DNA from: Takakia lepidozioides
Lineage: Eukaryota; Plantae; Bryophyta
Reading direction: 5' to 3'
Length of the DNA: 64,000 bases
Assembly: GCA_030704615.1 (NCBI GenBank)
Contig: CM060733.1
Span: 61,380,001-61,444,000, forward strand
Part shown: positions 26,620-63,491 of the stretch, in pieces
Layout of the letters: every line of letters begins with the position of its first letter
How positions within the stretch are numbered: position 1 is the stretch's first letter
The notes under the pieces: model-generated
What the model saw: only the letters and a program-made list of their open reading frames with translations
What the model was told of the DNA's origin: nothing
The model's database searches: none
Translations under genes and position numbers: made by a program

Positions 26620-29010
26620 TCACACATCCCCGCAACGTAGAGCAGACTTGATGCGCTGTACCGTACAGGATATGAGATTGTTTACCGTTGAAACCGATTC
26701 CAGAGAGAGCCTGGCTGATGGTATACTGCTCACCAGTATCTGAAAAGCTACCGTCAACAGAGACCCACCTGTGCGAGAGCTACCCGCAAGTTGCCCACTA
26801 TCGTGTTGAACTCCCATGTACCGCCGGTTCTCTGGACCATCTGGGAGAATTGCAAACCCTGAAGGGAGGAGAGCTACATAGTCAGGATCCCCACCCTGCA
26901 ACACAAGGTTCATGGCTGGAATGTCAACAGGCGCATAGATAACCAGTGAACCAGCCACGTCGGTGCAGCTTTCTTGAAGAATGAGCATGTTGCTTTGGCT
27001 TGCGTTCATAGCATTCACCCGCAAAAGTGATACACTATTCCCAGGATCTTGTCCTTTGGCAATGTGTGCCATTTCAGCCACTAGCCCTCCATTCGACAGG
27101 ATGTCCCACTCACTCCGCAATCGCTCGTCCCTAAGAAACTCAAAGACACGTTGAGGAGGTACTGGGAGCCACATAGAGGTGGCAGCACTCAGAACGATGC
27201 CAGGAGGCTCACCCGGATTGTCCACACTCTTGCGAGTCATCACCCGCACGTCATCTTCACCGCTTCCAGAGAGCGTTGTCCAGGTATGGACAGTCGAAGC
27301 ACTCACACCCGCACAGAAATTATTAGTCATGCGCTGAGCCAGTTTCAGCATGCTGCGCCGCCCATTGGCACTTGGCACCCCACCCAGATCTCTTGTGGCA
27401 ATATTGCTTGCGAGCAAACTGGCCAAGCGCTCACACTGTCGCTGAACAGTGGCCACCCACCGTTGCGCACCAAATGCCATGCCTGTGTTGACCAGAGCTC
27501 GATACATGCTGTGGACAGCCCGATCATCATACTCCATGTGTTCCACTGCTGTTATTTTAGAGTATCCGTTTGGGGTCTCCTGGATCAGCATACCTGAAGG
27601 ACGCCTTCTGCAGCGCATCAAAGATGGTGGAGGATTGTCTCGAAGGCTATCCACCGACACATCCACCACAGCCCACACGCCCTCGGCATGCTGCTTGCAG
27701 TAGCGAAGGAAGTAAATCTCGCGCGTGGGTACCAACGGAGACAACACTTGGAGCTCTGCATACATCAGCTGCAAAGCTCCGTTGCGATTCCCAGTCACTC
27801 CCGGGGAGAGGACATCAACAGTCAGAGCTCGAGATACGATGCAAGGAAACATTTCCATCCAGCGCCCGGCGTCCATTAGTGTCTCCACCAAATTCACTCC
27901 ATTCATCATCACCAACCCCGTCTCCCGCGTGGCCTCCGTCTTCAGTCCATGAGGTAGGCTGCCAATCCCTCGTGGAAACTGGCGCACGTACTCTTCATAG
28001 TTTAGCTGTTCTTTGGGAGCATCAGGGCTGGCTATCCACAGAGGATCTTCAGCTTGAGCCATGCGTACCAACTCTTCCATAGCTGTGACAGCGAGCTCCT
28101 CAACCATTGGCTTCTCCGCATCCGTGAGCCCACCTGGCCGAGTCGCTACATCAGCAACTGACGGGCCCTGCACAATGTCCATCCCAGCAGGTACTGCTGC
28201 AGGCATGCCGAAGCTCCCCCCTCCCACTTGCAGATCCAGAGAAGAGCTTGGGACCTGTGCCATTGGCGCGATAGGCCTACCAAGGTACTTCGCAGCCAAA
28301 GCAGAAACACGATCCAGCTCCCCCTTCAAACGTACATTCTCGATGCGCAGCTGCTGCTCGTCAAATGACATATCACCTATAGTTGCGGGACCACCACAGT
28401 GCTGACAAGATGCATTCTTGATTGCTTCCCGCATTGTAATATTTTCGGCCCGCAGTTGATCTCTCTCAGCTCGAAGACTTGAATTGTCAGTTCGCTCTTG
28501 CTGGGCCTTCATTTGTGTTCTCCGGTTTTGAAACCAAAACTTGACCTGGCGAGGTTCTAGGCCGAGGTCTTTGCTCAGCTTCTGTCGCTGTTTGTCATCA
28601 GGGTGGGGGCACTCTTTGAATTGCATTTCCATCTCTTGAATCTGCCGCGGCGTGTGCCTGTGATACCTCTTCTTGCGAGGGGGCAGATCAGGATCCTGAT
28701 CGTCGCCGGAGCCTCCCTCCATGTTGTCACTGCCTGACCTACTTTCGTACTCTTCTTCTTTGTTTTTCTGTTGTTGCTCATTCTCAGCCGTTTGACTCCC
28801 TTCGCGCAGGTTCTCAATCCCACTTGGAGGGGCAAGAGAGAGGCCAGAAGAGGACCCGTAGGCAGTCTTCGGGGGTGGGCGGGACATTGCCAACGGTGGC
28901 ACCGGTCGCGGAGGGGCCATCAACCCAGCGGGCATACCCCCAAAGTCCACAAAGCCCCCCCCCAGCGCACCGTTACAAGTTGATGAGACAACCACACCAC
29001 CCAGCCTCAT
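26620..29010 (-). CDS. Class IV homeodomain-leucine zipper transcription factor (ATML1/PDF2/ANL2/HDG family; HD, ZLZ, START, SAD), intronless CDS, 796 aa from the first ATG
   Basis: Homeodomain RKKRYHRHT...[14 protein letters not shown]; zipper-loop-zipper with CQHCGG; START (AMEELVRMA...[13 protein letters not shown]...CRRRPSG...AFGAQRW); SAD ([10 protein letters not shown]...EWDILSNG...LLPSGF...GSLLTVAFQ). First ATG at 29010, with an in-frame stop upstream. Confidence 0.97.
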
Positions 29011-42574: not shown

Positions 42575-42725
42575 CTATCCTTCGCTCAGCCATATTGTTG
42601 AACACTCCCTGTCCACAAGGGTATTGAGAATGACATCTGCCACAATTCCAGCTTTGACGATGCAACCATGGACCTCTTTGCCCTTCCCCAGCAGGCTCGC
42701 ACATGCAGTACAAACGCAAACAACT
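42575..42725 (-). pseudogene. PLS-class PPR fragment
   Basis: VCVCTACASLLGKGKEVHGCIVKAGIVADVILNTLVD is an L-type PPR motif; near-identical to 46560-46710 in inverted orientation. Confidence 0.75.
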
Positions 42726-45700
42726 GGTTGTGGCAAACTGAGAGCAATATGTGTCAGAAGAAACCACTTATACAAATCTACAGCTTACAGGCTGTCTCTA
42801 TCCTCAAAATTGGCAGCACATCACCCGCTGCTATGACATATATTGCCCTAGACACACATTGCCCTAACTGCCATCCCCCAAGATGCTACCCCCACCAGAC
42901 TTCTCTCACTTGGGTCCTTGCAAGGCTGACTTCCAGCTTTGACTCTGTGCATAGGGCCTATCGGACAACATACACCAGCAAGCCCTCCCCCTATCCTGCA
43001 TCAACTCATCTCAGTCTTATCAACTGCACAACGTATGATGGGAGTGAGTGCAACATGGGAAAAGAGCCACAACACATGATGAGCTGTAGGGAAGAAGCAA
43101 CATCGTGCAAAAAGCAAACGTGAAGCAGAAAAACGAGGCAACATGGAGAAGGGAAAATGGGTCAAGGCTGAGAAGGTCAACTGGTCAACAATGAGGAACT
43201 GGCTCTGGAGCACTATGTTGATGATTAAAGGGAGCAGCAAATACATTGGGGCATCGCAGCAAAGTGCATGCCAACGAGGGTCAGAATAGTGCAAGAAAGA
43301 CTCCACGGATGGTGGGCAGCCAAGGGAGATGCAGTGAGACAAGGCACTCATGGCAAGGGAGCTGCCAAGACAAAACTGTTGATTAGGCTACGGAGAAAAA
43401 GGAAAGCACAAGATCAACTACGAGGAAAAGTAGCAATTCAAGCATGGGAGCTGTTGCTAAAACATGAGGAGGAAGACATACGAGGTGAAGCATCAAGGGA
43501 ACCAGTAGGAGATGAGGAAGATGGAGCACACTTTCTTGTCAAAGGTTGGCGGCGAAGCATGCAACCCAGCAATCAGAAAGTGAGGCACCCGAGGCTGGAC
43601 TGCTGCAAAGAGGTACAAAAACAGGAGCTGAGAATGAGATGTTGCCTTTCGTTGAAGTTCCCCACACAAGGGCTGTTTGGCAAGCAAAAACCCCAGGCAA
43701 GGATGAGAGGTGAATCTGGGATAAAACCAGCAGCTGGAGTGAGGAAAGACACAAGGAAGGGCAGCAATACCTTGTCAAATCTGAGGGTGATGGCTGGAGA
43801 AAATTAAACAAGGACTGGAAGTATGGGAGCAGCAATCGCATGAAGAAAAATTTGCCTGAGAGTGAAAGGGAAGAAGACAGGCACCTTGCTTATGAAAAGT
43901 GGAAGGGCAGGGTAGAAAACCTGATGCCTGAAATTGGGAGCTGACTCTAGAAGACTCCAATCAGCTGTTGCCAACAATCGGACAGTGGAAGATCGCCCTT
44001 GGCTGGCGCAACACCACAAAATAGTGCAGCCCTGATAGCATGGTGAGTGGGGCACCAACAGAGCCAGAAATATGATGAGAAGGGGAGACTTCCGTGCCAA
44101 AAAGTCAATGCGGGCCTGCAGTGGCATGCAAGAAAACACCGTAAGTGTTGCCAACAGATGTAAATCAGTGCTCATTCATTCGAAAGCACCACGGAATGAA
44201 GGAAAAACACCTGCAGGGACGTTAAGCATAAAAGAGGATGAGAGCACTTCACTTGGGAAGAAAGTGAAGCATTGGAGAACAAGGCTGATGACTGGCAGTC
44301 TGAAAAGGAAAGGCGGTTGTGGGAAACCCTGCCAAGACCCAAGACAACCATATAGAAAGAATCAAGCAGATGGGAACTGCCCTTCATTGGGGTGGTGCAA
44401 ACAAGAGCACGACCAGAAGCTGAACCACATGAGAAGATAGTGTGTCATCACAGATGGAGACCCTGGAAAATGCTCTGCCCAGGAGATGAAGAACATTAGG
44501 CAACTAGAAACGTGGGGGGCTGAATATGCTCTGCAGTCAACTTGGCTTGTTGAATGCTTGCATAAGAGATGAGGGGTTGTTGTCAGTACACGACATTGAG
44601 TTCATCAAATCCTACAACAGCCCACCATCGCTACCCACTGCTTACAAACTGCCACAAAAACAGTTTCACAGGACTTACAGATGATTGGTGGAAGGCAAGG
44701 CCCCTCGCCATGGGCCAGATTAATTGTATGTTGCAGCCCAGAACAACGACGGGAAGTCATCTAGGGCAGCAAACCCCATCTTGGCAGCGTCTTTTGTGTG
44801 AGAGAAGTCAAGCTGAACCTGCTCATCATATCGAGTGGGATGGACCAGATGTAAAGCTGCCAAGCCAACCACACTCATATTCGCACTCAAGCAACATAAG
44901 CTGGAGCCATTTTCAGATTATGAGTACCCGTGTTTTAAGAATACTCCTTCTTCAACTTGCGGTGAACGGGCAGAAAACTTCACAATGTGCAGCAGATTAA
45001 TGGACCAAGATGCGGAGCTGAATTGGGTATCCAGTTAGGCAATGCTAGTTTCAAAACCCCGTTCCATCCCTGCGTACCGACATGGCATGTCAGCATGCAT
45101 ATCAGCCCAAACTTATTACTCCGTGAGCCTTCTACTGCCGGAGTGTGCCCATTCAAACTGTACACTAGAAGCATTCGTGTCTTTTCCGAATCGACTGCAT
45201 GTCCAAAACCACTGAGGGAACAACTTTGAGATGTTTATTACTACTGCACAGTTGTAACGGATAAATTCACATTTCTAATGGCGGATAGAAGTTGCATCAA
45301 TGACTCCGCAGTCGGCACAATATTCGCGGCGATTTAATTCAATTACGTAAATTGTTTTTTTTTTAAAAACAGCAATTACAAGTGGTTTTAAGCACTAGAG
45401 AACGACTCTTAACAACTAGGCATTCATTGCACACCCTATTCAAAAATGGAATTTTTATAAGTGCTCCACATGGCTCATGACGTGGAATATTTTAATGTAT
45501 TTTAGGGCTTGTGTAGCTCATAGAGATTGTTCTAATCGTCGGATGTAAAATGATCTAAGGGTGGAAGAGTAACTTTGTCCTTTGCCTGAATTTGTCTAAG
45601 TGTTGGGAGAGGGATGGAGGCTTGAGAGAGAGACGAACAAGTGATGCGAGAAGGACGAAGACCAAATCGAGGCCCATGTCCTGTTGTTGCAAGCGTTTAT

Positions 45701-46009
45701 GGCGTCAAGGGCGCATTATGTGCAAATGTGGGCTCTTGGCTCCCCTTTGTACCATGATTTGGTATTCTTCCTGATAATCACAAGGTTCTTGGGGGAATCA
45801 GCTTGGTCTTAGCAACCCATATTTTAATCTCTGCCCGCTCAGCTGCACCGTGGTGGTTCTTACGAACCAATCCCACATTACTTGACTAGAGATACAAACA
45901 GCACGCACAGGAGGTCTTCTTGGGTTCATGGTCAGTCTAATCCGCAATGGGTCATGACACAAGGTAGAGGACAATGTGGTGAGGGCACCTTCTTCTTCGA
46001 GCTATTTCA

Positions 46010-46880
46010 GCCTGTTTTGCCGAGATGTAGTATCGTGGAGTGCGATGCTTGCATGGTATGCACAGCAGGGACGTGGGATGGAGGCTTTGGAGACCTATGA
46101 AGTTGCGAAGGGAGAGTTTGATAACATGGCTGAACAAGATGTTGTCTCAAGGAACACGCTGAATCTCGCAAGATATGGCCAGCATGTGTGCGGGATGAGG
46201 GCATTGGAGACATATGAGCAAATGTTGAGAAGAGGTGCAGCCTGACCGGGTCATGTTCATTTGTGTTTGCAATGCATGTGCAAACCTGGCAGCCCTAGAG
46301 ACTTGGTAAAGGGCAAAGAGGTCCATCATGACATTGTCAAAGCTGGAACTGTACCAGATGTAACAATACCTCGTCGACATGTATGCCAAACGTGGGAGCA
46401 ATCCCTTGTGGACAAGGAGTGTTTAACAATATGGCTGAGCGAAATGTGGTGTGGTGGAACGTGTGATGATCGCAGGACATGCACAACATGGGCGGGGATT
46501 GCGGATTTTGGAGACCTATGAGCAAATGATGTGGGTCTAGGGGTGAAGCCCGAGCACATTACGTTTGTTTGTGTTTGTAGTGCATGTGCGAGCATGTTGG
46601 AGAAGGGCAAAGAGGTCCATGGTTGCATCGTCAAAGCTGGAATTGTGGTAGATGTCATTCTGAACATGAATACCCTTCTAGATAGGGAGTGTTCAACAAT
46701 ATGGCTGAGCGAAATGTGGTGTCGTGGAAAGTGATAATCGCAGGACATGCACAATAGGGGCGGGGATTGCAGGTTTTGGAGACCTATGAGCAGTTGATGT
46801 GGGAGGGGGTGAAGTCCGACCACATTACGTTCAGAGAGTTCAAATGCCTCTCCACCATGACCTTGCTTAGCTAACCATGC
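46010..46880 (+). pseudogene. Decayed, internally duplicated PLS-class PPR gene fragments
   Basis: RDVVSWSAMLAWYAQQGRGMEALETYE, MAEQDVVS, GVKPEHITFVCVCSACAS...GKEVHGCIVKAG; many frameshifts. Confidence 0.8.
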
Positions 46881-49364
46881 CTTGCTGATGTTGTTGTCTT
46901 GCACTTGAGCTGTTTTTGGACACTGGCTGGAACATCCACAAGGCGGCTCTGCTCGAGAGAGAAATCAGCTTGAATGCAGGGGCAGATTTTGAGATCACAA
47001 TCGCCACTCAGAACGTTGTTCTTTGGATGATGACTCTGTTGTCTTTGAGGCAAATGACTACTCCAATATCTTGGATGCTTTTGTGGCTCGGAAGTTCATG
47101 TCCAGTGCTTTTGTGTTTTTCTCGACACAAGAATCATCGGGAAATCTTGTGTCATACATCCGGAATGGCCCTGGATCAAAATGATTTATTATCCGACAGG
47201 ATTATTACATTCCCGGCGAGTTTGAATCACCTTACAAGAGCTGCACGACTGTATTCTCTCGGACGGTCCTCTGCCTCAACTATGTATTTTTGGCAACATC
47301 TGAGGAGATGGTGAATCCGGACGATCACATTCAAACTGTTTTGTTAACACCGGACCCAATTAATCCGTTATCCAAGGACCAGATGTAGACCCGACCTCGC
47401 AGGAAAATGAGTGCAGGACTTACACTCATGAGCTGAGGGCGGACACATATGATTACCTGGTTTTTTTTTTTTTTTTTTTTTTCAGGAACGGGATGTCTTG
47501 TGTGAACATTTTCGGAGGAGTGGCAATGACATACGTTCTGCTTGTAAGTGGTTTTGGAATTGTCTGTGTTTTCAGTTTGCCGGATTTAACTCTCGTGTTT
47601 TTTCTACGTTGTCGGAATATGGTGTTTAACCTGTGTCTGAATTTTCCATTTTGTTAACCTCCATTGGGCAGTGGAGGTTCATGTTATTGGAGTTCTCAAT
47701 GTTTTGGGTGTTTCTTATTCGGGAGTTTGGTGTGTTTGCTAGTTGTCTCAAAAGAAAACCTAACCCTTTCAATCTTTCGATGATTGCAGTTCGTCGGCTT
47801 TATTTTGATTTCATTGTTTGGTTTCATTGCAGGAAAGAAATATTCTTGTGCTTGACATAAACTATGTAATGAAAAAGAAATTTTGTAGAAGCAAGGTGGC
47901 GGCTTATTTCAAGACGCTCCAGATTGATAATTAGACTATTGCAGGAGACGGAGATGACGGAGATGACGGAGACTCACTGCAGGATGACGAAGGACACGAC
48001 AAGGATCATGACAAGGAAATGAAGGAGAAACAAGAAGAGGACGAGGAGGAGGAGAAAGACGAAATGAGAACATGGAAATCGTCACCGGAGACTAGGGGCA
48101 GATGCGACTAATGTGGGAAAAGGAAAGAGAGGGCCAGGAAATTTCTGGGTTGGCTAAACTAGGTAGTACTCCAAATACCCAAGAATGCGTTGCGCCACAA
48201 AGTGTACACAATCTCGACAGCTCTTCCTCCAGTTCCGATAACACCACGAATCAAAATCCGGCTTCTCCAGGGGGCCAAGAAGCGACATCGACGGAGTTAG
48301 TTGAAACCTTCGGTCAAGGGTTCACACCTGTGGAAGGTGACGAGCCATTGATTATGTCACCGGATCCCGTTAACAATCCTCGAGAGCTGGTGTCCCAGAA
48401 TGTCACCTAGGAAGTGGTTCTGGATGTAGGTAACGAATGACAATTAGTGAATTTTTATTCGTACACACTTCTGAATACAATATGACAATATTGTAATTAT
48501 ACATACTTGTGAGTGGCATAATCCGAATGTTTTTCCATATCCTTTGTTCTGGACTTTCGAATAAAACATATTTCCACCCGGATATATATTTCCGTTCGCA
48601 TACCTTTGTGGACAACCACTAACCGATTTGGATAACTTTTCTTGTAGATCCAAGAATCCCATTCGGAGAAAATGACATACACACAAAAAAGCTCAAAGGA
48701 GACTCAAACGGTGAAGAGACACGTGGATTTGACAATGAGGGCCAGGTCACCTAAGCTGGTTCCGCAAGTAACCTCCACTGTCCAGTCGACGTTGTCATCT
48801 ACAGGGAATGAGTCGGAGAATCCTCCTACTCGCGGGGAGGGAGAAGAGACAGAACACCACAAGCGCGTAATCCAACAACAGATCTCGATTCGGGTAAAAC
48901 ATTGGCTTTATTCTTATTACTCTTATTATGGGTCTTTCAGTCTCATCTTCGGTATTGCTCAATTCGGTAATTTTGTCGGATCAATTTAGACCACCATAAT
49001 CCTCATCCGTGGGATTCTTTAATTTCTTGTATATTCGTGAGACGACGTCTGAGGAGATCAAACACACACAGACCGACTCCAACGACACTGAGACGGTGAA
49101 GAGAAGAGTGGATCGGACAATCATTGTCGCTCTATCTGAGCCGGTCCTACAAGTAACCTCCACTGGACAGTCGAGGTTGCCATCTGGTGCCACAGAGAAG
49201 GAGGATAACGTTTCCCATAGAGATGGGAAAAATGAGGAGCAGCCCGCCCATGGATCTCAGCAGCCGCCCCAAAAAACGGTAATGCTTTCAACTCCATTTT
49301 TCCGTTTCTCTACTTTGGGATTTCTGAAATTGAAATTAATAATGAACTCTTCTATTATTCCACA

Positions 49365-50157
49365 GCACAACATGCATTACCCTCCAGTCGACTATTCCTT
49401 TTCTGTCAATCCAAACGATCTACATTCCCTTCCTTGGGGACCGAACGGATGCTTGCCAGGATACTACGTCCTGGTTCTGGACATCGGTTACCTTTGTGAG
49501 GTTTACCTAAAGGATGGAAAGAAAACCCCTCCTGCCACCCTGCCTTGTATCTCCGCAGGGAAATTCAAGTTAGCTACGCGAAACGATCTTGACGAATTCG
49601 TTAAGTGGGCCGTCAAAAAGTTTGCCGATTGTTTTTGGAACACTGGACTTAAAATGAACGTCGAGACTATCGCCAAGGCCGTGTTCGGGAAGTACTATTC
49701 CAAGGTCAGAACTTACAGTAGTGAGAATTCCGTCATGCATAGATCGACATTCAACGAAAAATGGCCTAAAGCTCCCAAAAATCCCATCTACTTTAAACGT
49801 CTTTACGACATTTTCGCTAAGGAAGTCCCAACAGCTTACAAATCCAATACTCTCCTCATCGACACTGTAGACAATATGTACAAGTCCTACTTGAACCCGT
49901 TAGGACATACCATCTTCCTTCCAAAATATAAGGCGCGCGTGGACCCTGACAGAGATAAATTTCTACTAGAAGAGCTCAAGCCTCACCTTAATATGTTCCG
50001 GTTATCAGGGATGGATGTCATGCCATTCAACGAGCTACATCCTTTCGGCGTTACGAAGGATTTATTCGAGGACGACCCAACGGTCAAATTTCTTAGAAAC
50101 TTTGATTATAGGTGGCTTAGCAAATCACGAGTTGCGTGCCGCTGCATTGGGACATAA
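49365..50157 (+). pseudogene. FCP1/SCP (NIF-type) HAD phosphatase-like domain 1, divergent
   Basis: VLVLDIGYL...RNDLDEFVKWAVKKF...FKRLYDIF...SNTLLIDTVDNMYKSYLNPLGHTIFLPKY matches the plant NIF pattern NTLLxDDSPYKxxxNPxxTxIFP. Confidence 0.6.
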
Positions 50158-50287: not shown

Positions 50288-50439
50288 ATTAGAGCACTTG
50301 TTTATCCTCCTGCGCAAGGGTTGCGTTTGATTATTTTTGACGTGAATGGAGTCTTGTGCAAAATCTTGAAGTACCAGAAGAGCTATAATGTCCCCCGGTT
50401 TTCAGAATCGGACTACAGTATTCTAGCTCTTGTCGGGTT
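50288..50439 (+). pseudogene. NIF-type HAD domain 2, N-terminal part, interrupted by the Gypsy-like element
   Basis: LRLIIFDVNGVLCK (HAD motif I variant). It joins in frame to 61773 once the element and one TSD copy are removed (CTT GTC GGG TTC GGA = LVGFG). Confidence 0.75.
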
Positions 50440-50763
50440 TATCAAGTTATTTTACCACTAGTGTGAAACTAGCTAGGAAATAGCTATCTTTTACATATTG
50501 ACATTTGGGATTGGCCCAAGTGTCAAATCCAGGGGTCAAGGCAGATTTAGGCCCTGGAGTGGTTATCTTCACGGCAAGCGCGGGAGGCTCATCTTTCTCG
50601 AGTTGAGCCTCACCGCGCCTAGCTATGGCGCCGTAGTGTGGATTCCCCATGGCGTGGGGTGCACTTGGCTTGACTTGTATTTGAGTGATGAGGTTATATA
50701 TGCATGAGTTTATGCTTCAGCTTTGTGAGCTCGCATGAGCTTGTCTTGTATTCTTCTTTATCA
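50440..50763 (+). repeat. Terminal repeat A1
   Basis: Near-identical to 61258-61583 and to the reverse complement of 4209-4535; ends TTTATCA. Confidence 0.95.
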
Positions 50764-50775
50764 CTCGAGAAAGAT
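50763..50775 (+). promoter_or_regulatory. Putative self-priming primer-binding site
   Basis: ACTCGAGAAAGAT is the exact reverse complement of ATCTTTCTCGAGT at 50591-50603. No TGG-type tRNA PBS is present. Confidence 0.6.
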
Positions 50776-52289
50776 CAGCTCGTATCTATGAGTGCTAGAT
50801 ACGAGTTAGTTGTAGCACTTGTGGTTTTTGCTTGAGATTGAGAGAAACCAAGTTGTTATGCAAGGAGCACCATGAAGCTCTTGGTTGTTAGAAGCGGAGG
50901 CGATGTGGGTTACGAGGTGGTAGACCTTGGCATTCGATCTTCAGCTTCAGAGATGAAAGCACCATGCTGCAGGTAATTCCAGAGCACCTTGATGGTTTCA
51001 GATTGTGTACATGCATGAGCAAGCACGATTGGAAGAGGACCAGTCAAGAGCAGGTTATAGTGGCTTTGGTGGCAAAGCTGAGAACTGGACCTGGGAATGC
51101 GAGCTTTCATTGTGAAGGATTGCAAGACCAAGCGAAAGGGCTGATTTGGCTTGGGGCAAATCAATGCACTTTGTGGAGTATGGTGAGATTGGGTTTCAAT
51201 CTCGAGCTTCAGCATTGAGAGGGCTCTTGTCATGGCAAGAGCAGGGCTGGAACAGGAGCTAAGAGGTGCGGCAAGGCCATGGAATGTGCACCTAGGGTTT
51301 CAGAGCTTGGAAGAAGAGCTCTTGCACCACAAGAGAGTTCTTGTGGCTGGAGATGTAAGCCTTAGGGTTTCAGGAGCTTGGCAAAGGCTGTGGAGTGCTT
51401 AGTCTTGTCTTAGAGAGCATCAAGGAGCCAAGGAGCCAAGATAGGGGGCTGATATCTCTTGTGTGAAGAGGTTGCATGTGTGGAGCATGTATTCAGCTCA
51501 TTGAAGCTTCCATCTTCAAGCTTGGAGGGCAAGCAAGGAAGAGGGAAGGGCTGACTTCCCTTATGTGAGGGCAATGTTGTGTGGAGCATGCTATCAGCCT
51601 GGTGAAGGCTTGCACTTTTAGGTGTGGGAGTGCAAGAAGGAAGGAAGGGGCTGGTTTCCCTGTAGGGCATGTAGAGCATGCTTTCAGCCTGCTGAAGCTT
51701 GTATTTTCAGGTTTGTGGGTGCAAGAAATGAAGCAAAGGAGCTGATTCTCTTATGGTGAGAGTGGGGCATGTGTGGAGCATGCCTTCAGCCATTGAGGCT
51801 CTTGTTTTCAAGCTTAGAGAGCTAGAACGGAAGGTCTAGGGCTGGTTTCCACTTGGAGTGAAAGAAAAGCACTTGTAGGGCCTATGTGAGTTGGGGTTTC
51901 AACTTCAAGCTTGAAGGGAGCGCAACTCTTGAAGCAACAGGTGTAGAGGGCTGGAATAGGCTCTAAGACAGATGCTATGGCCAAGAGAGTGTGCTTGAAT
52001 GAGTGCTCACAAGGGCTGGGAACCAGCAGGGCTTGGTTGTTTGCCATTGAGTTTAGTGGCGTGTTTGGGGAGGCTAAGTGAGAAAGAAGGCTTGGTTTGT
52101 GGCAACCACCTCATGGCTTAGGGCTACTATGGTGGTGTGTGGGAGCCGAAAGAGCAAGGATACCTTGCTGATTTCCTCACAGCCACCATAGCTCGGTGGA
52201 AAGAAGCCTAGAGTCCAAGAGACACAAACCCTAGCTTGGCGTGGCTAAACCCCTTGGAGAAATGGCTAAACTGCCAGAGCGGCCATGTG

Positions 52290-52870
52290 TGGGGCTGTGA
52301 CAGGCTGTGTGGCTGTGAAGGCTGTTGTGCCCCTTTGGGGCTGTGACGGGCTGTGAGGCTGTGCAAGGGCTGTGACAGGCTGTGTGTGTGTTGAGGGCTG
52401 TGACAGGCTGTGCTGGCCTGTGGGGCTGTGACGGGCTGTGACAAAGAATGTGGCCTTTGGGGCTGTGACGGGCTGTGTGCCTGAAGGGGTGTGTGACGGG
52501 CTGTGACAGGTTGTGTGCTGTGCTGTTGAAGAAACAGGCTGTGCCCTGAACGGCTGTTGTTGTGACCTGGCCTTTGGGCCTGTGAGGGGCTGTGACTGCC
52601 TGAAGGCTGCTGTGAATGCCTGAGGCCTTTGGGCTGTGATCTGTTCCTGTGACAAGGCTGTGAGGGGCTGTGTGTTGTGGACTGTGATGACGGGCTGTGA
52701 ATGTTGTGAGAGGCTGTGAAAAAAGGGGCTGTGACAGAGGACGGGCTGCTGTGTGTGAACAAAATGTGAACAGGCTGTGCCCAGTGGCCTGTGGGACTGT
52801 GACGGCTGTGACCAGTGAGCTGTGTGGGCCTGTGCTGGTCTGTGGTGGCCCGTGTTGACCTGTGGACGGC
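52290..52870. repeat. GGCTGTGA(C) degenerate minisatellite in the element leader
   Basis: Dozens of ggctgtg units; source of the spurious S/Q/T/H-rich antisense ORFs. Confidence 0.85.
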
Positions 52871-53549
52871 CTGTGCTGACTCGTGGAGGCACTGGTGGAC
52901 TGCCTAAGGACTGGCATGTGGTCTGGAAGGCCGAATTTTGAAGCTCGTGGAGGGCGGTTTGAGGAGTATCTTCATGATATTCCCATGGTCATGGTGAGGA
53001 GTGTTGGGATGAGGCATGCTGGGGTTAGGCATTGCTTTAGCTTCTCTTCCTCGTAGTTTCCACCCTCTCATTAGGCCAAGACCTTTCCGTAGGTGGAGGC
53101 AAGAGTCAGTCCGGGTTTGGGCTGGGGTCCTTGCAGGAGCAACACCGTGGAGTTGTTTTTGGTGTGGGGGAGTTGTCGTTCTGATTTCTTGTGTTTGGAT
53201 CCCCTCCATACCTGCATGCTTGACTGTGCGCCATGCTAGTTTTGTGTGGGCGCTTGTTTTTATAGGTGATTGGTCCGGATTTGATCACCGGCCAGTCCTA
53301 GAGCATGCTGTCGATGGTGAGGCTGGGGTGATGACCAGACCATCATTGTTTCTCCTGTGGTGAGGTTGGAGGTGATGACCAGCCAACCATAGGAGTGCTT
53401 GCGGTGGATGCAGGTACAGGTGTAGGCTATGTTAGGAACTTAGTATTCCAAACCATAAGCCGCAACAGGTTCTCTACCCGGTTACCTTGTGGAGAGGGGT
53501 TAGGGACATGTTCATGACCGGTTGAGTGTCAACACGGAGGTGCCACTAG

Positions 53550-55000
53550 TTGCTGGGGACAGTGCCGGTTCGAGCACTAGCGATACTAGTGGGTACACGA
53601 GACGGTGTGCGGTTTAGGCCACCTTCACCTCCTGTGTCTTCTACGGAAGGTTCTGATTCGGATTGTGAATCAGGAGGACTCATACCGGCGGTGCAAGTTG
53701 TTTCTTTGCCATTGTTGTGGGACACAATGGAGGAGATGTATGGAGCTACCAAGGGGCCACGAAGGTACTCTGGGGCGGTGGGCACCATCGAGTTGGATGA
53801 TTTTATCCAAGAGTTTGATAGTTGGTGTGATTTGCAGCAAATGCGCAATCCACAACTATTTACGCCTTTCATGGCATGGAAGGGCTGTTTCAGCACCTTG
53901 AGGGGCCGCCTATGGATGATTACCATGAGTTCAGGCGGGGGCATGAGGTTGAGATCGAGGAGTGGAGGATGTACTGGTCACCCGACTATGTCTCCATCAC
54001 TAGGGGCACTAGAGCCACGAGGGCAGTGGCTACACCTGCCGCTGCACCGGCAGCTTCAGCAAGCAGCAGTGGGACTGGTGGTACAGTAGCTACGACGTCC
54101 ACCCAAGCCACTACCGCACCAGCACTAGCACCCGTGCCTGCCTTCAACCTGTTGTGGAGTTCTTCGAAGAGTTGAGAGGGAACTACAAGGGGTGAGGACA
54201 GAGAAGTTGCGGAGCTTGCAAGAGTTCCAACGGAAGCCGACCGAGAGCTTGAGGGAGGCTTTCACTCGCATGAGGCGCTTGATAAATGTAACCCAAGGGT
54301 TACGGAAGCTCAGGCAGTCCAATTCTGGTATGGGATATTGGACAAGGAGCTGAGGAGAAGGGTGCGGGATGCAACTCTCTACAAGCGGCCCAACCCACCT
54401 TAGCAAATGTGTTTTTGCTGGCAGAGCGGATAGAGCTCAACATGGTGGAGGAACGTGGTCATGGTGGATTTGCTAAGGAGACACCACGGGGTAGTGGTGC
54501 TCCTAGCCAACCACTACCTCAACGTGCTCAAGGCAACAAGGGGGCTCAGGTGAAGCTCAGGGAAGGGCAGAGAGGACCTCAGATGCAGGGGTCTCTCCCT
54601 TCATTTGCTGGCCAACAACGGGCGGATGTGGTGTGCTGGACATGTGGAGGACCCCATGTCAAGAAGGATTGCCCAGAGGAGGCAAAGGGCGGCACATGCA
54701 CAGCCTGCAGTTGCAGTGTGGGCATTGTGGCAAGCACGGGCATGGAGAGGCCCAGTGTTATGTTTTGCATCCTGAGTTGCGCCCAGGCCAGTTCCAAGGG
54801 AACAATGGTGGCCGGGGGCGAGGTGGAGCAGCCCAGAGAGGACGAGGTGGCCAGCCACGAGGTGCAGGCCAAGGGCAAGCTCAACGTGGCCAAGGACGCG
54901 GAGGTCAGGGTGTTGACCAAGGCATGGCCAACCGGCTTCAGCAGCTAGAGCAGAGGCTCGCTGCCATGGCTACAGCTCAGGTGGTACCGGCTCTAAGGCC
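53550..55000 (+). CDS. Gag (frameshifted) with two CCHC zinc knuckles
   Basis: YSG...LDDFIQEFDSWC capsid-like start; LRSLQEFQRKPTESLRE; knuckles CWTCGGPHVKKDC (~54634) and CGHCGKHGHGEAQC (~54717); RGG-rich tail. Start codon uncertain. Confidence 0.75.
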
Positions 55001-55689
55001 GGATGGTCCACCTCCTGCTCCTGAGGGAGGAGATATGGGAGGCATGGGATTCATGTGTGGAGCAGCACTACCACTAGTGCAGGTGGAGTCTGCTGCAGCC
55101 GTGACTCGAGGAGCAGCACGAGTTCCTGAGCCACGAGGTGCAGAGGTGGAGTTGGATCCACAGCGTGGGGAGGCAAGCCGTCAGGCTAGGCTTCCTCAGT
55201 CATTCACATTGGCGGAGACAGTGTCGACGCCATCCATGGCACCTAGTTCTCGCCCGACTGTTACCGAGGCGGAGGTTACTATGCCATTGGGGAGAGCTAC
55301 ACGGGTAGCACCACTACCTAGTGTTGCCAAGGCTACGGCAGCTAGTGTGCTGCTAGGAGCGGCCACATCTGTGTGCCAGGCTCCATTGTTTTCGGCTACC
55401 ATGATTGCGACGCCGGGGTAAGACCAGCTGAGGTGTTCAGGCTGGCAGCTACACTCTGTGAGAGTGGGGAGGTTACTTCATCTTCTGCGGAGATAGTGGG
55501 AGGTGTAGTGCCGGAGGGATCCTCGGATTTGAGGGTCAAGACTGCCACGGCGGCGCCATGGCAAGCTGCAGCTGCCAGGTTGATGGAGCTGCCAGCTAGG
55601 CCAGCCATTGAGCGCGCCATGGTGACACCTGGAGTTGTCATGTTAGACAACCAGGATGGCATTTTTTCTGTTTGAGTGGACCGGCAGGC

Positions 55690-56010
55690 AAGAGGTACCG
55701 GCCACTGCGGTCTTGTTGGACTCGGGAGCTCAGCCACTGATGCTGGGCAGAGCTGCTATTGCAGGCTTGGGCCTCACGGAGGCGGATATGGAGCCTTGTC
55801 CTTTCCAGATACAGACGTCTCTGGGAGGATCGGAGCAGGCTCGGGGCATGACACGGCATGAGTTGGCTATCAGACTACGGCCGGATCACCCTACAGATGG
55901 CTCAGTGATGCGAGCCAAGGCCATTGTGACAGACGCAGTCTCATACGATGTCCTGGTTGGTGGGGCAGTGTTGTACCCCATGGGCTTCACCCTGGATTTT
56001 TGGGAGGAGT
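55690..56010 (+). CDS. Retropepsin aspartic protease domain
   Basis: VLLDSGAQ (DSG at 55719-55727) and SYDVLVGGAVL. Confidence 0.88.
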
Positions 56011-56429
56011 CAGCTTCCTATAGGCCTGCATGGCAGTCAGGGGAGGGCCGGCGTGTGCAGCTCCCTGTGACGTTCATAGGAGGAGTTGCGGTTGCCCAGC
56101 GAGGCAAGATGCCACTAGCAGCATTCACAGCGGCAGTGAGTTGGCCTAGAGAGTTGCTTGAGGGCAATGCTCATTCAGAGGATGTACCACCTCCGGGAGA
56201 GCAGGATGACATGTATGGTATGGCGGAGTTGCCTACCATGGTTGCTCAGACTCCATTGTGGGGCACGAGCAAGGATTTGCAGCGGGATGCTGATCGACGG
56301 GTGCAACAAGCCTGGGTGGAGGCTTTTGTACCGTCAGGAGAGGAGGAGAGTGTGGGGATTGCACCAGGACCACCTCAATTGTCTCCATTGGACACCACAC
56401 CTATTGTGTGGCAGTATCCGGATGAAGGC

Positions 56430-57390
56430 ATTTGTCTTCTGGACTTGTTTGGCGGGATCAGCACCGGATTGGCTGCTGTGTTACAGGCAGGTGTACGAGT
56501 TCGGCGTTACCTGTATGTGGAGAGGGATGAGACTGCACGACGCGTTTCACTTCGCCATGTTGCTCAGTTGGTGCAGCGGTACCCTGAGTTGTTGTCGGTG
56601 TCTGCAATTCGTGGATATCAGCAGGCCTTGCCAGCAGACATTTCGTTGCTGGGGGCGCAGGATTTGGAGCGGGTTGGCTCCATTGATCTGGTAGTGGCAG
56701 GTTTGGCCCTGCCAAGGCATTCATCAGCCGGGCATGGCAATGGATTGCGAGACTCGAGGTCGGGTCTGTTTTGGGAGATGGTGCGGGTTTTGCGCCACTT
56801 GCAGCTTCAGCTTCATCAAGCTGTATCTCCAGCATACATCTTGGAGAATGTGCCACTGATGGGCGATTCTCGGGCCAGGGTGATGGCCAGTGTGCATCAA
56901 GTCCGGTCGTGGCTTGGGTCAGCAGTGTTGCTAGATGCAGCTACAGTGGGGTCACGGGCTCATCGTCCACGGCTATGGTGGACTAACTTGATGCCACCCG
57001 CACTGCTCAAGCGTGCATTTGATGGGGTGCAGCGGCCAGCACATCTCACAGTGGATAACATTCTGGACACAGGGAGGCAGTCTCAACGTGTGAGACACGA
57101 TGACCGTTCGCCTTTGGCAGTGGTCAACAAGGTGGGTCAACCACGAGCAGCATTACCTACACTGCTCAGCTTCCCAGGATCGCATGCTTTCCGGGATAGT
57201 GGACCTGGCCTCCTGTGGGATGCTCAGTTGCAGCAGTTAGTGGAGCCTAATGCTGACGAGCGTGAGCGGGCAATGGGTTTTACCACTGGTACCACGGCGG
57301 TGTCGTCTCTTTCTGAGGCATCACGTCGTCAAGTGTTGGGGCAAGCAATGGATCTCAATTGCTTGACCTGGATTATCAGCTTGGCTCTGC
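56430..57390 (+). CDS. DNMT3-like C5 cytosine DNA methyltransferase domain within pol
   Basis: Motif I LDLFGGIS; II YVE; III DI; IV IDLVVAG+WPCQG (locally shifted frame, 56704-56717); V SGLFWE; VI ILENV; VIII AHRPRLWWTN; IX ERERAMGF; X RRQVLGQAMD. In frame with the protease. Confidence 0.92.
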
Positions 57391-57819
57391 TGAGCAACGC
57401 AGAGTGCGGAATACACTTCCCTCAATGGTCTCTCTGCCTACCGAGACGGTACAGGCAGTGAGTGGGGGCGAGCATATGAGGACCACGGGGTGCATGCATC
57501 CATGGCACACGTGGGAGGTGCTCGAGGTTCAGAGGGAGTTGGCAGCCAAGGCGGCTGTGATGGATGAGGTTGGGGATTCTTCTCGGTTGAGGAGGTCCTC
57601 AAGGATGAGATGATGGGGCAGGATGAGCCTTGTCATTGACTGAGCAGGTAGGGAGTACTGCTCAAGAGGTTGCAGCATAGCAACCACGGGACGCGTCCTC
57701 TACCTCTAAGCCCACTGGACTTAAGTTTGTAGTTACGGAGGACAATTGGGAGCCTGACATTGGACCCATTGTCACCGGAGGAGAGAGACGACGTATACGG
57801 CGGTTCCTGAGGGCTTACA

Positions 57820-59170
57820 GGAATTGCTTTGCCTTCAGTTTGAAGGACTTGGGAGCACTGAAGGGTCAAGAGATCCGTATTGAGTTGGCCACTGACACGC
57901 CAATCTTTCGGAGACCCTATAGATACAGTGACATGGAGAGGTCTTTGATTCAGATGAGGACTCAAGATCTCTGGGAGGCAGGTTTGGTGGAGCTCTCTGG
58001 TGGAGAGTATGCTTCAGCCACAGTGATGCCAGCCAAGAAGGATGTCTATGGCAATTGGACGGAGAGACGTATGTGCGGTGATTACCGGCCTGTAAATCGT
58101 CAGACAAGTCCGATAAGTATGCCATGCCAACACCAGAGGAGATCTTTGATGCCATCGGGCATGCTAAGGCCTTTAGCACTTTGGATTTACGATCCGGATA
58201 TCACCAGTTGCCAATCAAGGAGGCGGACAAGCAGAAGACGGCATTCTGGGGGATCAATGAGCACGGCAAGGATTGCCTATATCAGTGGCGGTTCTTACCA
58301 TTTGGGCTTAAGAATGCTCCTGCAGAGTTTCAGAGAGTCATGGATAGGATTCTAGCAGGGGTGGACTTTGCTCGGTGCTACATAGATGACATCATCATCT
58401 TTAGACGATGGAGGAGCATGAGAGACACCTTCAGGTGGTATTGGAGCGCTTGAGAGCGCACGGATTGAAGTTGCATCCGGGGAAGTGCAAGTTTTTCCAC
58501 AACCAGATTGAGTATCTGGGTCACATGATATATCCTGGAGGATTGGGGGTACAGCAGACTAAGGTAGAGGCCATTGCACAAATTCCACGCCCCACGGATG
58601 TGAGCCGAGTTCGAGCTTTCATGGGGTTGGCAAACTATTATAGACGGTTTGTCAAGGGATTTAGTACCATTGCAAAGGCTCTAACCAAGCTGACCAAGGT
58701 GGACCAGGAGTGGCAGTGGGAAGATGAGCAGGAACGAGCTTTTCAAGAGCTCAAGGCGAGGTTGACCTCGGCGCCTATCTTGAGACGACCTATCAGGGGG
58801 CGTCCCTTTCAGCTGCATACGGATTGGAGCATGCTGGGGCTTGGAGCGGTGCTCACACAGGTGGATGATGAGGGAAGAGAGTTCGTAGTGGCTTACGCTA
58901 GCCGCTCGAACAACGCTGCAGAGGCTAAGTACAGCTCATATGAGGGAGAGTGCTTAGCTGCAGTGTGGGCCGTGGCACACTTCAGGTGCTATCTATACGG
59001 CAATCTTTTCACCCTTGTCACGGATCACCAGCCACTCAAGTGGTTGATGGAGTCAGACAAGCTTACGGGGAAGCTTGCACGGTGGGCACTTATACTCCAG
59101 GAGTATGACTTTCAGGTTGTGCATCGACCGGGTTTGGTCAATCGGGATGCGGATGGATTGAGTCGCAATC
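57820..59170 (+). CDS. Ty3/Gypsy reverse transcriptase and RNase H (frameshifted)
   Basis: RRPYR, RMCGDYRPVN, FSTLDLRSGYHQ, LPFGLKNAPAEFQ, YIDD, KCKF...YLGH; RNase H LHTDWS...YASR...EGECLA...TDHQPL...ADGLSR. Confidence 0.95.
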
Positions 59171-59559
59171 CATGCATGAGCCAGCAGGATGACACTGGAG
59201 CTCGGTGGCATGGTGAGACGGACGAGGAGATGGTGCCGGGATGGCACGCATCTGCATTTTTGTGTATCTTGGCATCGGGAGGTCAGATTGGACCTACAAC
59301 AGGGATGACTGTAGACGGAGTGTCTGAGGACCCTGAGGCTAGTGATGAGCTAGGTGGTGCCAGAGATATACATGAGGATTCGGCTGTGTTGGACTACCTC
59401 CGCACGGGAGACACGGCAGCCATTGTGACTGCCAGGGAGAGGGATCGGATCCTGCAACGAGCCAAGAGGTTCAAGTGGGAGGGATACACCTACTTCGAGT
59501 GTGGGAGGATGGTCGGGTGAGGATTGTGCCTCACCCCACACAGCGTGCACGGTTAGTGC

Positions 59560-60600
59560 GGCATGCCCATGAGGAGTTGGGGCATTTTGGAGTGCGACGC
59601 ACTCACAGTTTACTGCAGGGGCAGTATTGGTGGCGTGGTATGCATACAGAGGTGCAACAGTTTGTGGCTAGGTGCATGGTGTGTGACAGGGTGCGTGCTT
59701 CATTCAACGCCCCTACACCACAGTTGCATCCTTTACCATCATGGGATTGGGCTACAGGTGGAGTCTTGACTTCGCAGGACCGTTGCCACTGACTATGCGC
59801 CACCACAGATATGTGTTGGTGATGGTGGAGCACTTCTCCAAGTGGATTGAGTTGGTTCCATTGCCTGACAAGGCTAGTGAGGGGGCTGCGTATGCATTCT
59901 TGGATCGTGTGCTTAGCCGATTTGGTGCTCCAGCTGAGGTACTCACGGACCAAGGGAGAGAGTTCTTGGGGGAGTTTCAGGCTTTGTGTGATAAAGCCTT
60001 GATAGACCACCGCACCACTTCTCGGGATCATCCTGAGGCCGATGGCTTAGCAGAGAGAGTTGTTCAGACGGTGAAGAGGGTTTTGCGCAAGTATGGCTTG
60101 CAGAAGGGACACCTAGGAGATTGGGATCTTCAGGTTCCTTGGTTAGCCATGGGCTACAGGTTCAGCAAACAAGCATCACTTGCCTCCTTCTCACCATATT
60201 TCCTTCTCTTTGGCCGAGAGCCGGATTTGCCTGCAGCCATTCGTAGGGACACTGCTCAAGTCCTTAACCTTGACGATCCGGACGTGTGGGTACGTGCATG
60301 TGATCAGCGTGCAGAGTTGTTCAAGAAAGTCATGCCCATGGCTTTTGAGAACCTTGCCATTGCACAGCACCGTGATACGTTGAGGTATGCCACTATACGT
60401 GGTGGAGGATATCGTCCTGGGGTTCGGAGGTTTAGCCCTGGTGACTATGTTTATTTGCAGCAGACTGCTCCTACGACTCTGGATGTTACTGCAGGGCGTG
60501 TTATTCTGAGGGTTCGAGAGGTGTTGCCCTCAGGGGTCCTGATCTTAGAGGGTCGGGATGGCATGACTTGGAAGACCATGTGCGTAATTGTGCGCCATGT
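59560..60600 (+). CDS. DDE integrase (HHCC plus catalytic core; frameshifted)
   Basis: HEELGH...CMVC; WSLDFAGPLP; VLTDQGREF; HPEADGLAERVVQTVK; SPYFLLFGREP; FSPGDYVYL. Confidence 0.95.
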
Positions 60601-60663
60601 CACCTTCCCAATGTCGATGGCAGAGTTGACCCAAACTTGGCAGTGGTACCTGCAGGTTTGAGG

Positions 60664-60807
60664 TGCATGCTCTGTGGGTCTGCCAAAGGGGCAGCCACCA
60701 TGCTGGTGTGTGATCGATGCTCAAGGGGTTGGCATATGGGATGCTTGACACCACCTCTTGAGAAGGTTCCTGACGGAGATTGGTTGTGTCCACACTGCTT
60801 GGGATAG
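60664..60807 (+). CDS. PHD finger at the C-terminus of integrase
   Basis: CMLC...MLVCDRCSRGWHMGCLTPPLEKVPDGDWLCPHC, a canonical C4HC3 pattern. Confidence 0.93.
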   Translation, partial: CMLCGSAKGAATMLVCDRCSRGWHMGCLTPPLEKVPDGDWLCPHCLG

Positions 60808-61057
60808 TGGCAGTGGACATGACTGGAGGCAGCTAACAAGACATGGGAGGCCAAGCTCATAGGAGTCAATACATGAGATCCCAAGCTCAAGTTCACAGGT
60901 TGCAAGACGGCGACTAACGATGGGGCAACTCTTGCACCCGGCCTCTTGATCTATCGAGTTTGAGTGTAGTAGGGATAGTGGTGGAGGACTTAGTGAGGCT
61001 ATGGTCACTATCACATCTTGTGGGCTACCTGGACTTAGAGGGACCTAAGCACCAGCT

Positions 61058-61066
61058 AGGGGGCGA
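61058..61066 (+). promoter_or_regulatory. Polypurine tract
   Basis: AGGGGGCGA immediately before repeat B1 (T-TGTGTGG). Confidence 0.65.
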
Positions 61067-61772
61067 TTGTGTGGACTAGTGACTGCCATAGTGGGCAGCG
61101 TAGTGGCAGCCTAGTGACTGACTAGTTGTAGCCTAGTGGTTGGACTAGTGGCTGGACTAGTGGTAGACTAGTGGTATACTAGTGTGTGGTGTGCACATGT
61201 GTTGTGTGGTTTTGGACAGCGATGTAGTTGTGTAGCGATATGTATGCGCACGACAGCTGTCAAGTTATTTTACCACTAGTGTGAAACTAGCTAGGAAAAG
61301 CTAGCTTTTACATATTGACATTTGGGATTGGCCCAAGTGTCAATCCAGGGGTCAAGGCAGATTTAGGCCCTGGAGTGGTTATCTTCACGGCAAGCGCGGG
61401 AGGCTCATCTTTCTCGAGTTGAGCCTCACCGCGCCTAGCTATGGCGCCGTAGTGTGGATTCCCCATGGCGTGGGGTGCACTTGGCTTGACTTGTATTTGA
61501 GTGATGAGGTTATATATGCATGAGTTTATGCTTCAGCTTTGTGAGCTCGCATGAGCTTGTGCTTGTATTCTTCTTCTTTATCATTGTGTGGACTAGTGAC
61601 TGCCATAGTGGGCAGCGTAGTGGCAGCCTAGTGACTGACTAGTTGTAGCCTAGTGGTTGGACTAGTGGCTGGACTAGTGGTAGACTAGTGGTATACTAGT
61701 GTGTGGTGTGCACATGTGTTGTGTGGTTTTGGACAGCGATGTAGTTGTGTAGCGATATGTATGCGCACGACA
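61067..61772 (+). repeat. 3' repeat block B1 (61067-61255) - GC - A2 (61258-61583) - B2 (61584-61772)
   Basis: B1 and B2 are 189 bp, appear identical and are rich in GACTAGTG units; A2 matches A1. Confidence 0.95.
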
Positions 61773-62230
61773 GGTTCGGACTTGTCTTTAGACGGGAGAA
61801 ATATCGCGAAGTGTGGGCAGAGTTGCACAAACACTTCGGTTTAGGGATTTGGAGCTCTATGATGTACAAGAACTTGCAGCCCATCCTGGATTTTTTGCTT
61901 CGTGGTCTCCCTCAACCGGCCTTTGTTATGTCTCAAGAGGATTGTATTTCATGTCCTACTTCGGTTCACCCTCAATTCAAATAAGGATTTGACCCTCCTC
62001 ATTTGTTTTTGAAACCACTGGTCAAGGTCTGGTAGAGATTTGGTGGACAATACACCAAGAGTAACACTCTGCTCATTGACGACACCGCCATGAAGTGTGT
62101 ATTGAACCCGCCCGACTCATGTCTTGTTCTCAAACCATTCCAGACCGTGGAGATTGATGGTTGTTATCTTCTCAAGGTTCTTCAGACCTATTTGCTTGGA
62201 ATGAGGAAACATCCCACTGTTTCAAGCTAT
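61773..62230 (+). pseudogene. NIF-type HAD domain 2, C-terminal part
   Basis: GLVFRRE...HFGLGIWSSMM...FVMSQEDC...FLKPLVKVW*...SNTLLIDDTAMKCVLNPP; in-frame stops. Confidence 0.75.
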
Positions 62231-62418
62231 TTTAATGGTCTACTCTTGGTCCTTTACAGTAGTCCATTGTCGGGACACTTATGTCTCCGAAAACGTAGAG
62301 GTCACTCTAAAACTAAGAAACACTACATCGTGTTGTTTTTGACGACGGGAACACTTAAATTGCGCAGGATGTCATCGTCCATCAACCTTCATCTGCCACA
62401 TCGGGGAAGAGGAAACGG

Positions 62419-63491
62419 ATGTTGTTAATATTGAGTGTCAATGGACTCCTCTGCTACCGGCCACCTCCAACCGGCGGTGAATTGTTTAAGGAGAGATTTC
62501 GTTTCAGGAAAGTTACAGTTCATGTTCCCAACAGACCTTTTGTTGTTCCCCGGCCCGGAGTCTTGGAGTTTCTCAACCTTGCGTTCATGCATTTTCACGT
62601 GGCGATCTGGTTATGTGCTGAAAGAGATGTTCTTTGTAGGATGCTCGAGTGCTTAGTTCCTACGAAAATTGCGAAGAAATTTTGTTTCATCTGGTCAGCT
62701 GAGGATTGCAAAGACACAACCAGTTACATCATGCCTGGGATGAAATATCTCGTTAAGGATATTCGCACTGTTCTTGCCAAGTACCCTGATACACCATTTG
62801 CAACGCAGAGACAAATACTTCTTGTCGATGATGAGTCATCAAAGGGCCTCCGAAACCCACCAAATACTGGATTCTTCCGTATTTCATACAAGCCATCACC
62901 GAAGGGCTTGGTTGACCAGGATGATATGACAAAAGCTGTGTGGCCATATATATTGAAAATGGCTGCAGCTTCAATAGTGGTAGATTACATCAGCGAAAAC
63001 CCTGCCAAGTGGTCTCGTAAGCCTATTGGTCGTGACCATGCCTATTAAGCTTGGTATGGAAGATATGTTGATCCTCGTGTTTGGATCCCACAACAAAAGG
63101 AACCTGATTACCTTGGTATGTACTTATCCCACTGTTTATTGTTTATGGAGAATTTGATCTTGAAAGTGTCTTCTACTTGCACTTTTACTTTATCATTTTT
63201 TCTACAAATGTTCCACATTTCAATTGACATTTGTCATTTGAAAAATTGTTTTGCCCAGTCACATTCAAGGAGCGAATTCGAAAAGAAGAAGAAGAGCTTC
63301 GTGATTGGCGAGAATGGCGGGCTTCTCGGCAGGCTTCAAGGGCATTAGGAGATTCAACAAGTAGAGTTCCAAGTAACATTTCAGATGATAATGTTATTAC
63401 TAGGTTCGAGTTCTCCGAAAGTATTTCCGTTTCCTCTGGTGCGGAGACCGTTGGTTGTGGAACCGGAGGCGTCTTCGAACACATGCCTTGA
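62419..63491 (+). pseudogene. NIF-type HAD domain 3 plus terminal exon
   Basis: LLILSVNGLLC...PRPGVLEFLNLAFMHFHVAIW...FIWSAEDC...ILLVDDESSKGLRNPPNTGFF; stop at 63046-63048; probable GT-AG intron about 63116-63258. Confidence 0.75.

Follow-up and report, generated by a model that had tools for sequence, protein, structure and literature searches.

Probable tRNA-independent self-priming in a split-repeat Ty3/gypsy element of Takakia lepidozioides

The stretch of DNA analysed here, hereafter the window, comprises 64,000 nucleotides of Takakia lepidozioides (GenBank assembly GCA_030704615.1, contig CM060733.1, positions 61,380,001 to 61,444,000, forward strand). At 50440-61772 of the window lies a mobile element composed, in this order, of repeat A1, a primer-binding site (PBS), an internal region, a polypurine tract (PPT), repeat B1, the dinucleotide GC, repeat A2 and repeat B2 (Table 1). 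Judged by its sequence it is a dead Ty3/gypsy element with DNA-methyltransferase and PHD domains: protease (a label given by motif and position), reverse transcriptase, RNase H and a DDE integrase follow one another in the order typical of this superfamily, the best solved relative of the reverse transcriptase is that of Ty3 (E 6.5e-41), and the named protein relatives come from Calypogeia, Marchantia, Sphagnum, Klebsormidium and Closterium. The GGTT duplication around A1..B2, together with flanks that share one NIF-like reading frame, indicates that the whole is one insertion. Two nested long terminal repeat (LTR) elements were also considered and ruled out, since the A and B repeats alternate and the duplicated bases enclose A1..B2 instead of A1..A2. 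The family of the window element is abundant in the public DNA runs examined, in which sequence depth drops about 60-fold just past B2. Copy 1, a second insertion in the window, likewise begins where A begins, as do individual records from runs X8 and X12 (X12 being contigs, a type that was guessed), next to other flanks.

The segment that follows A1 was compared with A1 itself and with the corresponding segments of relatives. The trinucleotide TGG of a tRNA-type site is absent after A in all 15 of the 5′ ends compared, the window's two copies included, excluding a full tRNA 3′ end as partner and agreeing with the first-pass annotation, which had seen no such site. Direct sequence comparison revealed perfect antiparallel complementarity in both window copies, over 13 bp between 50763-50775 and 50591-50603 inside A1, and over 14 bp between 4197-4210 and 4372-4385 in copy 1, which lies on the minus strand; both pairings had been reported in that annotation. 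The complementary run is followed by a C:C mismatch and then by three further pairs and one G-T; other copies from public DNA runs (loose ends at 61583) carry G at 50776, so that their match extends over 17 bp. About 1e-5 matches of a 13-mer inside A would be expected by chance, and the duplex score of the window A1 was reached by 0 of 200 dinucleotide shuffles of A1. In a survey of self-priming (PMC6317226), the criterion is a stretch of at least 10 nt, beginning 0-5 nt past the 5′ repeat and complementary to a segment within the repeat. Such stretches measure 13 and 14 bp in the window copies and 17 and 15 bp in the relatives L009 and L035. No tRNA gene was found within the 64-kb window or the collected loci, and a sigma-70 promoter scan, irrelevant for this host, found no promoter.

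Relatives were gathered by one metagenome scan with an integrase alignment, and the best 80 of 507 confirmed stretches were used; viral contigs yielded no loci. The 15 5′ ends, 13 loci plus the window's two copies, fall into four families whose A repeats are barely alignable; two of the loci (L005 and L009) are the same insertion. PBS sequences differ among the four families and each pairs best with the A of its own family, the mean duplex score being 13.4 for 69 own-family pairs vs 8.5 for 156 cross-family pairs. A homologous place in A is used for the pairing in 14 of the 15 ends, and for seven of nine A1 copies the score was matched by no more than 4 of 200 shuffles. Covariation across copies, a check suggested in the first-pass annotation, was thus observed: the PBS and its partner in A change together, a joint change that a tRNA primer cannot account for. 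The tRNA-independent self-priming that the annotation had inferred is, on this comparative evidence, well supported, and we regard self-priming in some form as highly probable.

In the first-pass annotation, the primer segment was described as the loop of a hairpin. Hairpin 1 is real (z -5.5), with the qualification that 50591 is its innermost stem base and the loop comprises 50592-50603. This geometry is confined to family 1, that of the window; in families 2 and 3 the primer segment forms a hairpin's 3′ arm, and in family 4 no strong hairpin contains it. A second hairpin, 3′ of the PBS, is also real in the window copy, and its innermost pair is A-T there and G-C in copy 1, exactly as had been reported. 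This pair was rejected as evidence of a compensatory change, because both changes are transitions like those of methyl-C decay, only about five inner pairs are left in copy 1 (z -0.3), and a hairpin 3′ of the PBS reaches z < -2 in only 3 of 13 ends. When window RNA was folded from 50587 or 50591 onward, the predicted primer:PBS pair probability was 0.997-0.998, and it fell to 0.0 for RNA beginning at 50570 or 50440, the folding program modelling no pseudoknots, those between loop and PBS included. Hairpin masking of the primer is also predicted in family 3.

TATA boxes give a hint of where the RNA may start. TATAAA occurs 45-48 nt before the primer 3′ end in 5/5 ends of family 4, about 30 nt ahead of a 15-nt primer, and 31-42 nt before it in three of the six ends of family 2, a spacing which would fit an RNA start at the primer. 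From the raw RNA run X14, 0 reads matched the element, an outcome that carries no weight either way. In Tf1, the RNA's initial 11 bases anneal to the PBS, and base 11 is followed by the RNase H cut (PMC7175516). A plain route of this type, with the RNA starting at the primer, is probably the one used here: the RNA would start at or just before 50591, its 5′ segment would fold back onto 50764-50775, and an RNase H cut of the folded RNA would release the primer, as in Tf1. The element encodes an RNase H domain (profile match), primer cleavage being a predicted step. Hairpin 1 of family 1 would form only if sequence upstream of the start is present, and would then mask the primer copy in A2 and that of read-through RNA.

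The first-pass annotation had instead named a conformational switch or cleavage at the loop as a possibility. For this, the RNA would start upstream of hairpin 1, the loop would kiss the PBS, the stem would be invaded by the PBS, and cleavage on the loop's 3′ side would release a longer primer that stays tethered. The high stability of hairpin 1 and the resemblance of the PBS extension to its 3′ arm are consistent with such a switch, as is the lack of a TATA box 30 nt ahead of the primer in the window family, and the pairing probability of zero does not refute it because the folding program is without pseudoknots. However, the primer-in-loop geometry is not common to the other three families, the TATA spacing in families 2 and 4 indicates a start at the primer, and a 12-bp helix through a 12-nt loop appears sterically unlikely. 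We therefore consider the switch unlikely, and less likely than the Tf1-type start, with family 1, which has no TATA box, as the place where it may yet apply.

Comparison of whole elements revealed an unusual arrangement of repeats. The full A-internal-B-A-B layout is found in the window and at eight loci, and the 4-bp target duplication around A1..B2 is exact in six of these nine elements, that of the window included. The insertions have A as their first and B as their last repeat, although the positions of PBS and PPT imply that the replicated LTR is B+A and not A alone, as had been assumed in the first-pass annotation. At the B-A junction, GACA-like and TGTCA-like ends are separated by a 2-nt spacer in 30/30 rows (three row pairs represent the same insertion, and two rows were read by eye). 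The spacer reads GC in 9, AC in 10, AT in 7 and GT in 4 rows, always GC or a transition of GC, with column counts slightly blurred by the rows of L030 and L069, which are two bases out of register. A staggered cut at this junction would leave both ends with the CA-3′ and the 2-nt overhang on which integrases act, as is established for retroviral ends. The integrase of these elements likely cuts inside the LTR and not at the cDNA ends, in which case imprecise primer removal would be harmless. At 14 family-4 loci the A-B joint, for its part, was seen in five forms, and L006, L007 and L035 retain PPT-side bases at this joint; end-joining of primer-made ends fits a poorly removed self-primer. By this scheme, ordinary reverse transcription would yield B-A-internal-B-A, the integrase would cut the upstream B-A site with a 2-nt stagger to give CA-3′ ends, and the primer-defined ends would undergo imprecise joining, in a circle prior to insertion or through host repair following it.

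Another 24 loci end in a single B, three of which are full A-internal-B elements with a target duplication (L017 2716-11355, L021 59-6641 and L079 2115-11303), exact in two and matching in three of four bases in the third. Single-B ends may result from assembly collapse, from B1xB2 recombination or from one-LTR circles. One element with the full A-internal-B-A-B layout (L042 1637-9335) has no methyltransferase match, probably owing to an internal deletion, and in L022 (8031-11902) and L024 (5137-9008, minus strand) the first element is followed immediately downstream by another member of the lineage in opposite orientation.

The same A-coding-B-A-B arrangement of split direct repeats is known from tyrosine-recombinase elements, the Ngaro/PAT and SymbioDIRS elements (PMC5890265), raising the question of whether the element replicates as they do, with RNA running through B2, the A-B joint inherited via the RNA, and PBS and PPT used otherwise or mere relics. 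Such replication would explain without any asymmetry why B precedes A1 in 0 of 12 distinct 5′ ends, and it accords with A1/A2 pairs being somewhat more diverged than B1/B2 pairs (11.1% vs 8.0%, nine elements). Against it, no tyrosine recombinase was found in the 14 + 69 reading frames scanned, whereas the element has a DDE integrase, a protease-like motif and 4-bp duplications, PBS and PPT still occupy their canonical positions, and some A-B joints contain PPT-side bases; we judge this explanation improbable. A slightly poorer case can be made for the pairing serving RNA dimerisation or packaging, with priming in trans between two RNAs or otherwise: the 6-nt palindrome CTCGAG lies in the hairpin loop and PBS of the window family, and TTCTAGAA in family 4, but families 2 and 3 keep the PBS:A match without such a palindrome, and the match always lies next to where A ends, in the polarity required of a primer. 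A host tRNA, half-tRNA or small RNA as primer, with the match to A incidental, is the least credible explanation of all, given the lack of TGG at every end, four unrelated PBS sequences that are each matched by their own repeat, and an Rfam search over 50300-51100 that returned no match.

We tentatively propose, as an account that may prove correct, that a green-plant Gypsy lineage has uncoupled the ends of reverse transcription from the ends of integration. It would self-prime, tolerate ragged primer removal, join its ends, and insert by a staggered cut at a palindrome inside the LTR; in some families, a hairpin straddling the RNA start would lock all but the true 5′ primer copy. Several observations weigh against this proposal or its parts. 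Regarding the pairing, one cross-family duplex score is as high as 16.5, L017 has its best duplex elsewhere, and aged copies pair weakly, 26/200 (L015) and 29/200 (L069) shuffles reaching their scores. No TATA box lies at the expected place in families 1 and 3 (0/2 ends each), and folding predicts no hairpin masking in L005/L009 or L035. Tf1 has two duplexes that flank the PBS in a 'pretzel' (bioRxiv 10.1101/2022.12.06.519325), neither of which beat shuffles in nine ends here (best 19/200, a test weakened by the age of the copies). Regarding integration, the target duplication has three of four bases in L076, is absent in L035 and is not assessable in L069. L012 and L016 have a common flank and a different A-B joint, so part of the raggedness must be later mutation or assembly error. 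Finally, with a symmetric circle half of the insertions should read A-B-A-internal-B, and none of the 12 ends shows this form, so that an asymmetry must be assumed, for which the upstream LTR becoming double-stranded first is a possible reason.

By its domains and its layout, the element is of the kind of KnitGypsy-Dnmt3 from Klebsormidium nitens (de Mendoza et al. 2018; PMC5890265), in which Gypsy domains likewise share a coding region with a C5 methyltransferase and whose repeats, according to the 2018 figure legend, are arranged as in DIRS elements (A-coding-B-A-B). An integrase-PHD protein of K. nitens (P0087) is 57% identical to the integrase of the element. The accessible text of PMC5890265 on KnitGypsy-Dnmt3 is silent on primer and target duplication as well as on cut site and mechanism, and the name appeared in no further paper of the literature searched.

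Self-priming has been shown for Tf1, proposed for Tj1 (PMC4600332), and predicted for Tcn1, TAR and 12% of surveyed plant elements (PMC6317226). As in the present element, the PBS of Tf1/Tf2 (Schizosaccharomyces pombe), of the Tf1/sushi group and of Tcn1 directly follows the 5′ repeat, is complementary to 11-17 nt inside it and is no tRNA site (PMC7175516, PMC4600332, PMC6317226, bioRxiv 10.1101/2022.12.06.519325). Self-priming in TAR (Houba/Osr-1) was predicted in plants from the same type of PBS:LTR match, in that case in a Ty1/copia element with ordinary LTRs (PMC6317226). The domain order of Tf1/sushi is also that of Ty3/gypsy, but the present element has a PHD finger (found in L009, L035 and L042 as well) in place of a chromodomain and an additional DNA methyltransferase domain; its primer sets no integrase end, insertions starting and stopping at the internal B-A site. 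Since it has neither a chromodomain nor detectable pretzel duplexes, we did not place it in Tf1/sushi despite its Tf1-like priming. In IS3/IS30-type circles, too, a DDE enzyme cuts between abutted ends. The integrase of foamy virus cleaves the palindrome of 2-LTR circle junctions (PMC1180852), providing another DDE enzyme that cuts a palindrome between two abutted ends as proposed here; that palindrome is the join of the cDNA ends, whereas in the present element the LTR itself supplies the palindrome as a templated internal sequence, and the cDNA ends meet at a joint without conservation.

Other features were noted in the window. NIF/FCP1-like phosphatase frames are clustered around the element (49000-50157; 50290-50439 with 61773-62240; 62359-63048), which interrupts one of them; these flanks are themselves repeated in the genome, and the cluster could be part of a different mobile element. 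Copy 1 lies directly next to a decayed retroelement on the plus strand (4536-9850, reverse transcriptase match at 6297-7238), probably a long interspersed nuclear element and the insertion target of copy 1. A stop-free frame of 812 codons at 26620-29058 on the minus strand, apparently intronless, encodes homeodomain, START and PDF2_C domains (HD-ZIP IV type). Decayed repeats on both strands at 42600-46960 (families D5, D11 and D16; inverted pair I16) are presumably PPR-like, a label assigned by motif and for which the one frame scanned gave no Pfam match. Arrays of units of about 285 bp, 60-93% alike, occupy 22620-24014 and 13860-14920.

Table 1. Parts of the element at 50440-61772 and of copy 1, in window coordinates
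Feature	Position	Strand	Basis or remark
Copy 1, second insertion with different flank, runs off window start	4197-4535	-	A1 4535-4209; primer 4385-4372; PBS 4208-4197
Left 4-bp target-site duplication GGTT	50436-50439	+	One NIF-like reading frame runs on in both flanks
Repeat A1, 3′ part of replicated LTR, likely promoter, R and U5; left insertion end	50440-50763	+	Repeat comparison
Hairpin 1, encloses primer segment; predicted to block primer:PBS pairing in RNA containing its 5′ arm	50578-50618	+	z -5.5; pair probabilities
Likely self-primer, predicted RNA 5′ end	50591-50603	+	Exact complement of 50763-50775; family-specific pairing
PBS, directly 3′ of A1, not tRNA-type	50764-50775	+	Sequence match; comparison of 15 ends
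Hairpin 2, 3′ of PBS, not kept in copy 1, role unsupported	50779-50805	+	10 bp, loop 7 nt, z -4.0
GT-rich tandem repeats of about 10 bp, long 5′ leader	52280-52810 (approximate limits)	+	
gag-like and protease-like region, broken by frameshifts/stops	53700-56100	+	Motifs and position; no Pfam match
C5 cytosine DNA methyltransferase domain	56400-57458	+	PF00145, E 1.3e-5; relatives in liverworts, moss, algae
Reverse transcriptase and RNase H, frameshifted	57681-59110	+	PF00078, PF17917, PF17919
DDE integrase (H2C2 zinc finger and rve core), frameshifted	59535-60556	+	PF17921, PF00665
PHD finger at integrase end, then stop; no chromodomain	60664-60798	+	PF00628, E 1.7e-11
PPT directly before B1	61058-61065	+	G-run here in all four families
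Repeat B1, 5′ part of replicated LTR, U3-like	61066-61255	+	100% identical to B2
B-A junction, conserved near-palindrome GACA-GC-TGTCA, likely integrase cut site	61248-61264	.	2-nt spacer 30/30
Repeat A2 with second primer copy (61407-61419) and hairpin 1	61258-61583	+	Repeat comparison
Repeat B2, right insertion end; joint with A2 = likely join of two reverse-transcription ends	61583-61772	+	
Right 4-bp target-site duplication GGTT	61773-61776	+	

Self-priming alone is already known; of interest here is the proposed link between self-priming and integration at an internal site, in a lineage that has no chromodomain and whose cDNA ends are likely not those used for integration. A search of mainly open-access literature found no report of self-priming in this lineage. 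LTR-finding programs would mis-call elements of this kind. Integration at circle junctions or internal sites is an idea long argued for retroviruses. If true, the uncoupling proposed here would explain the split repeats noted for KnitGypsy-Dnmt3, and would provide a natural case in which cutting at an internal site or circle junction is the normal route of a retroviral-type integrase.
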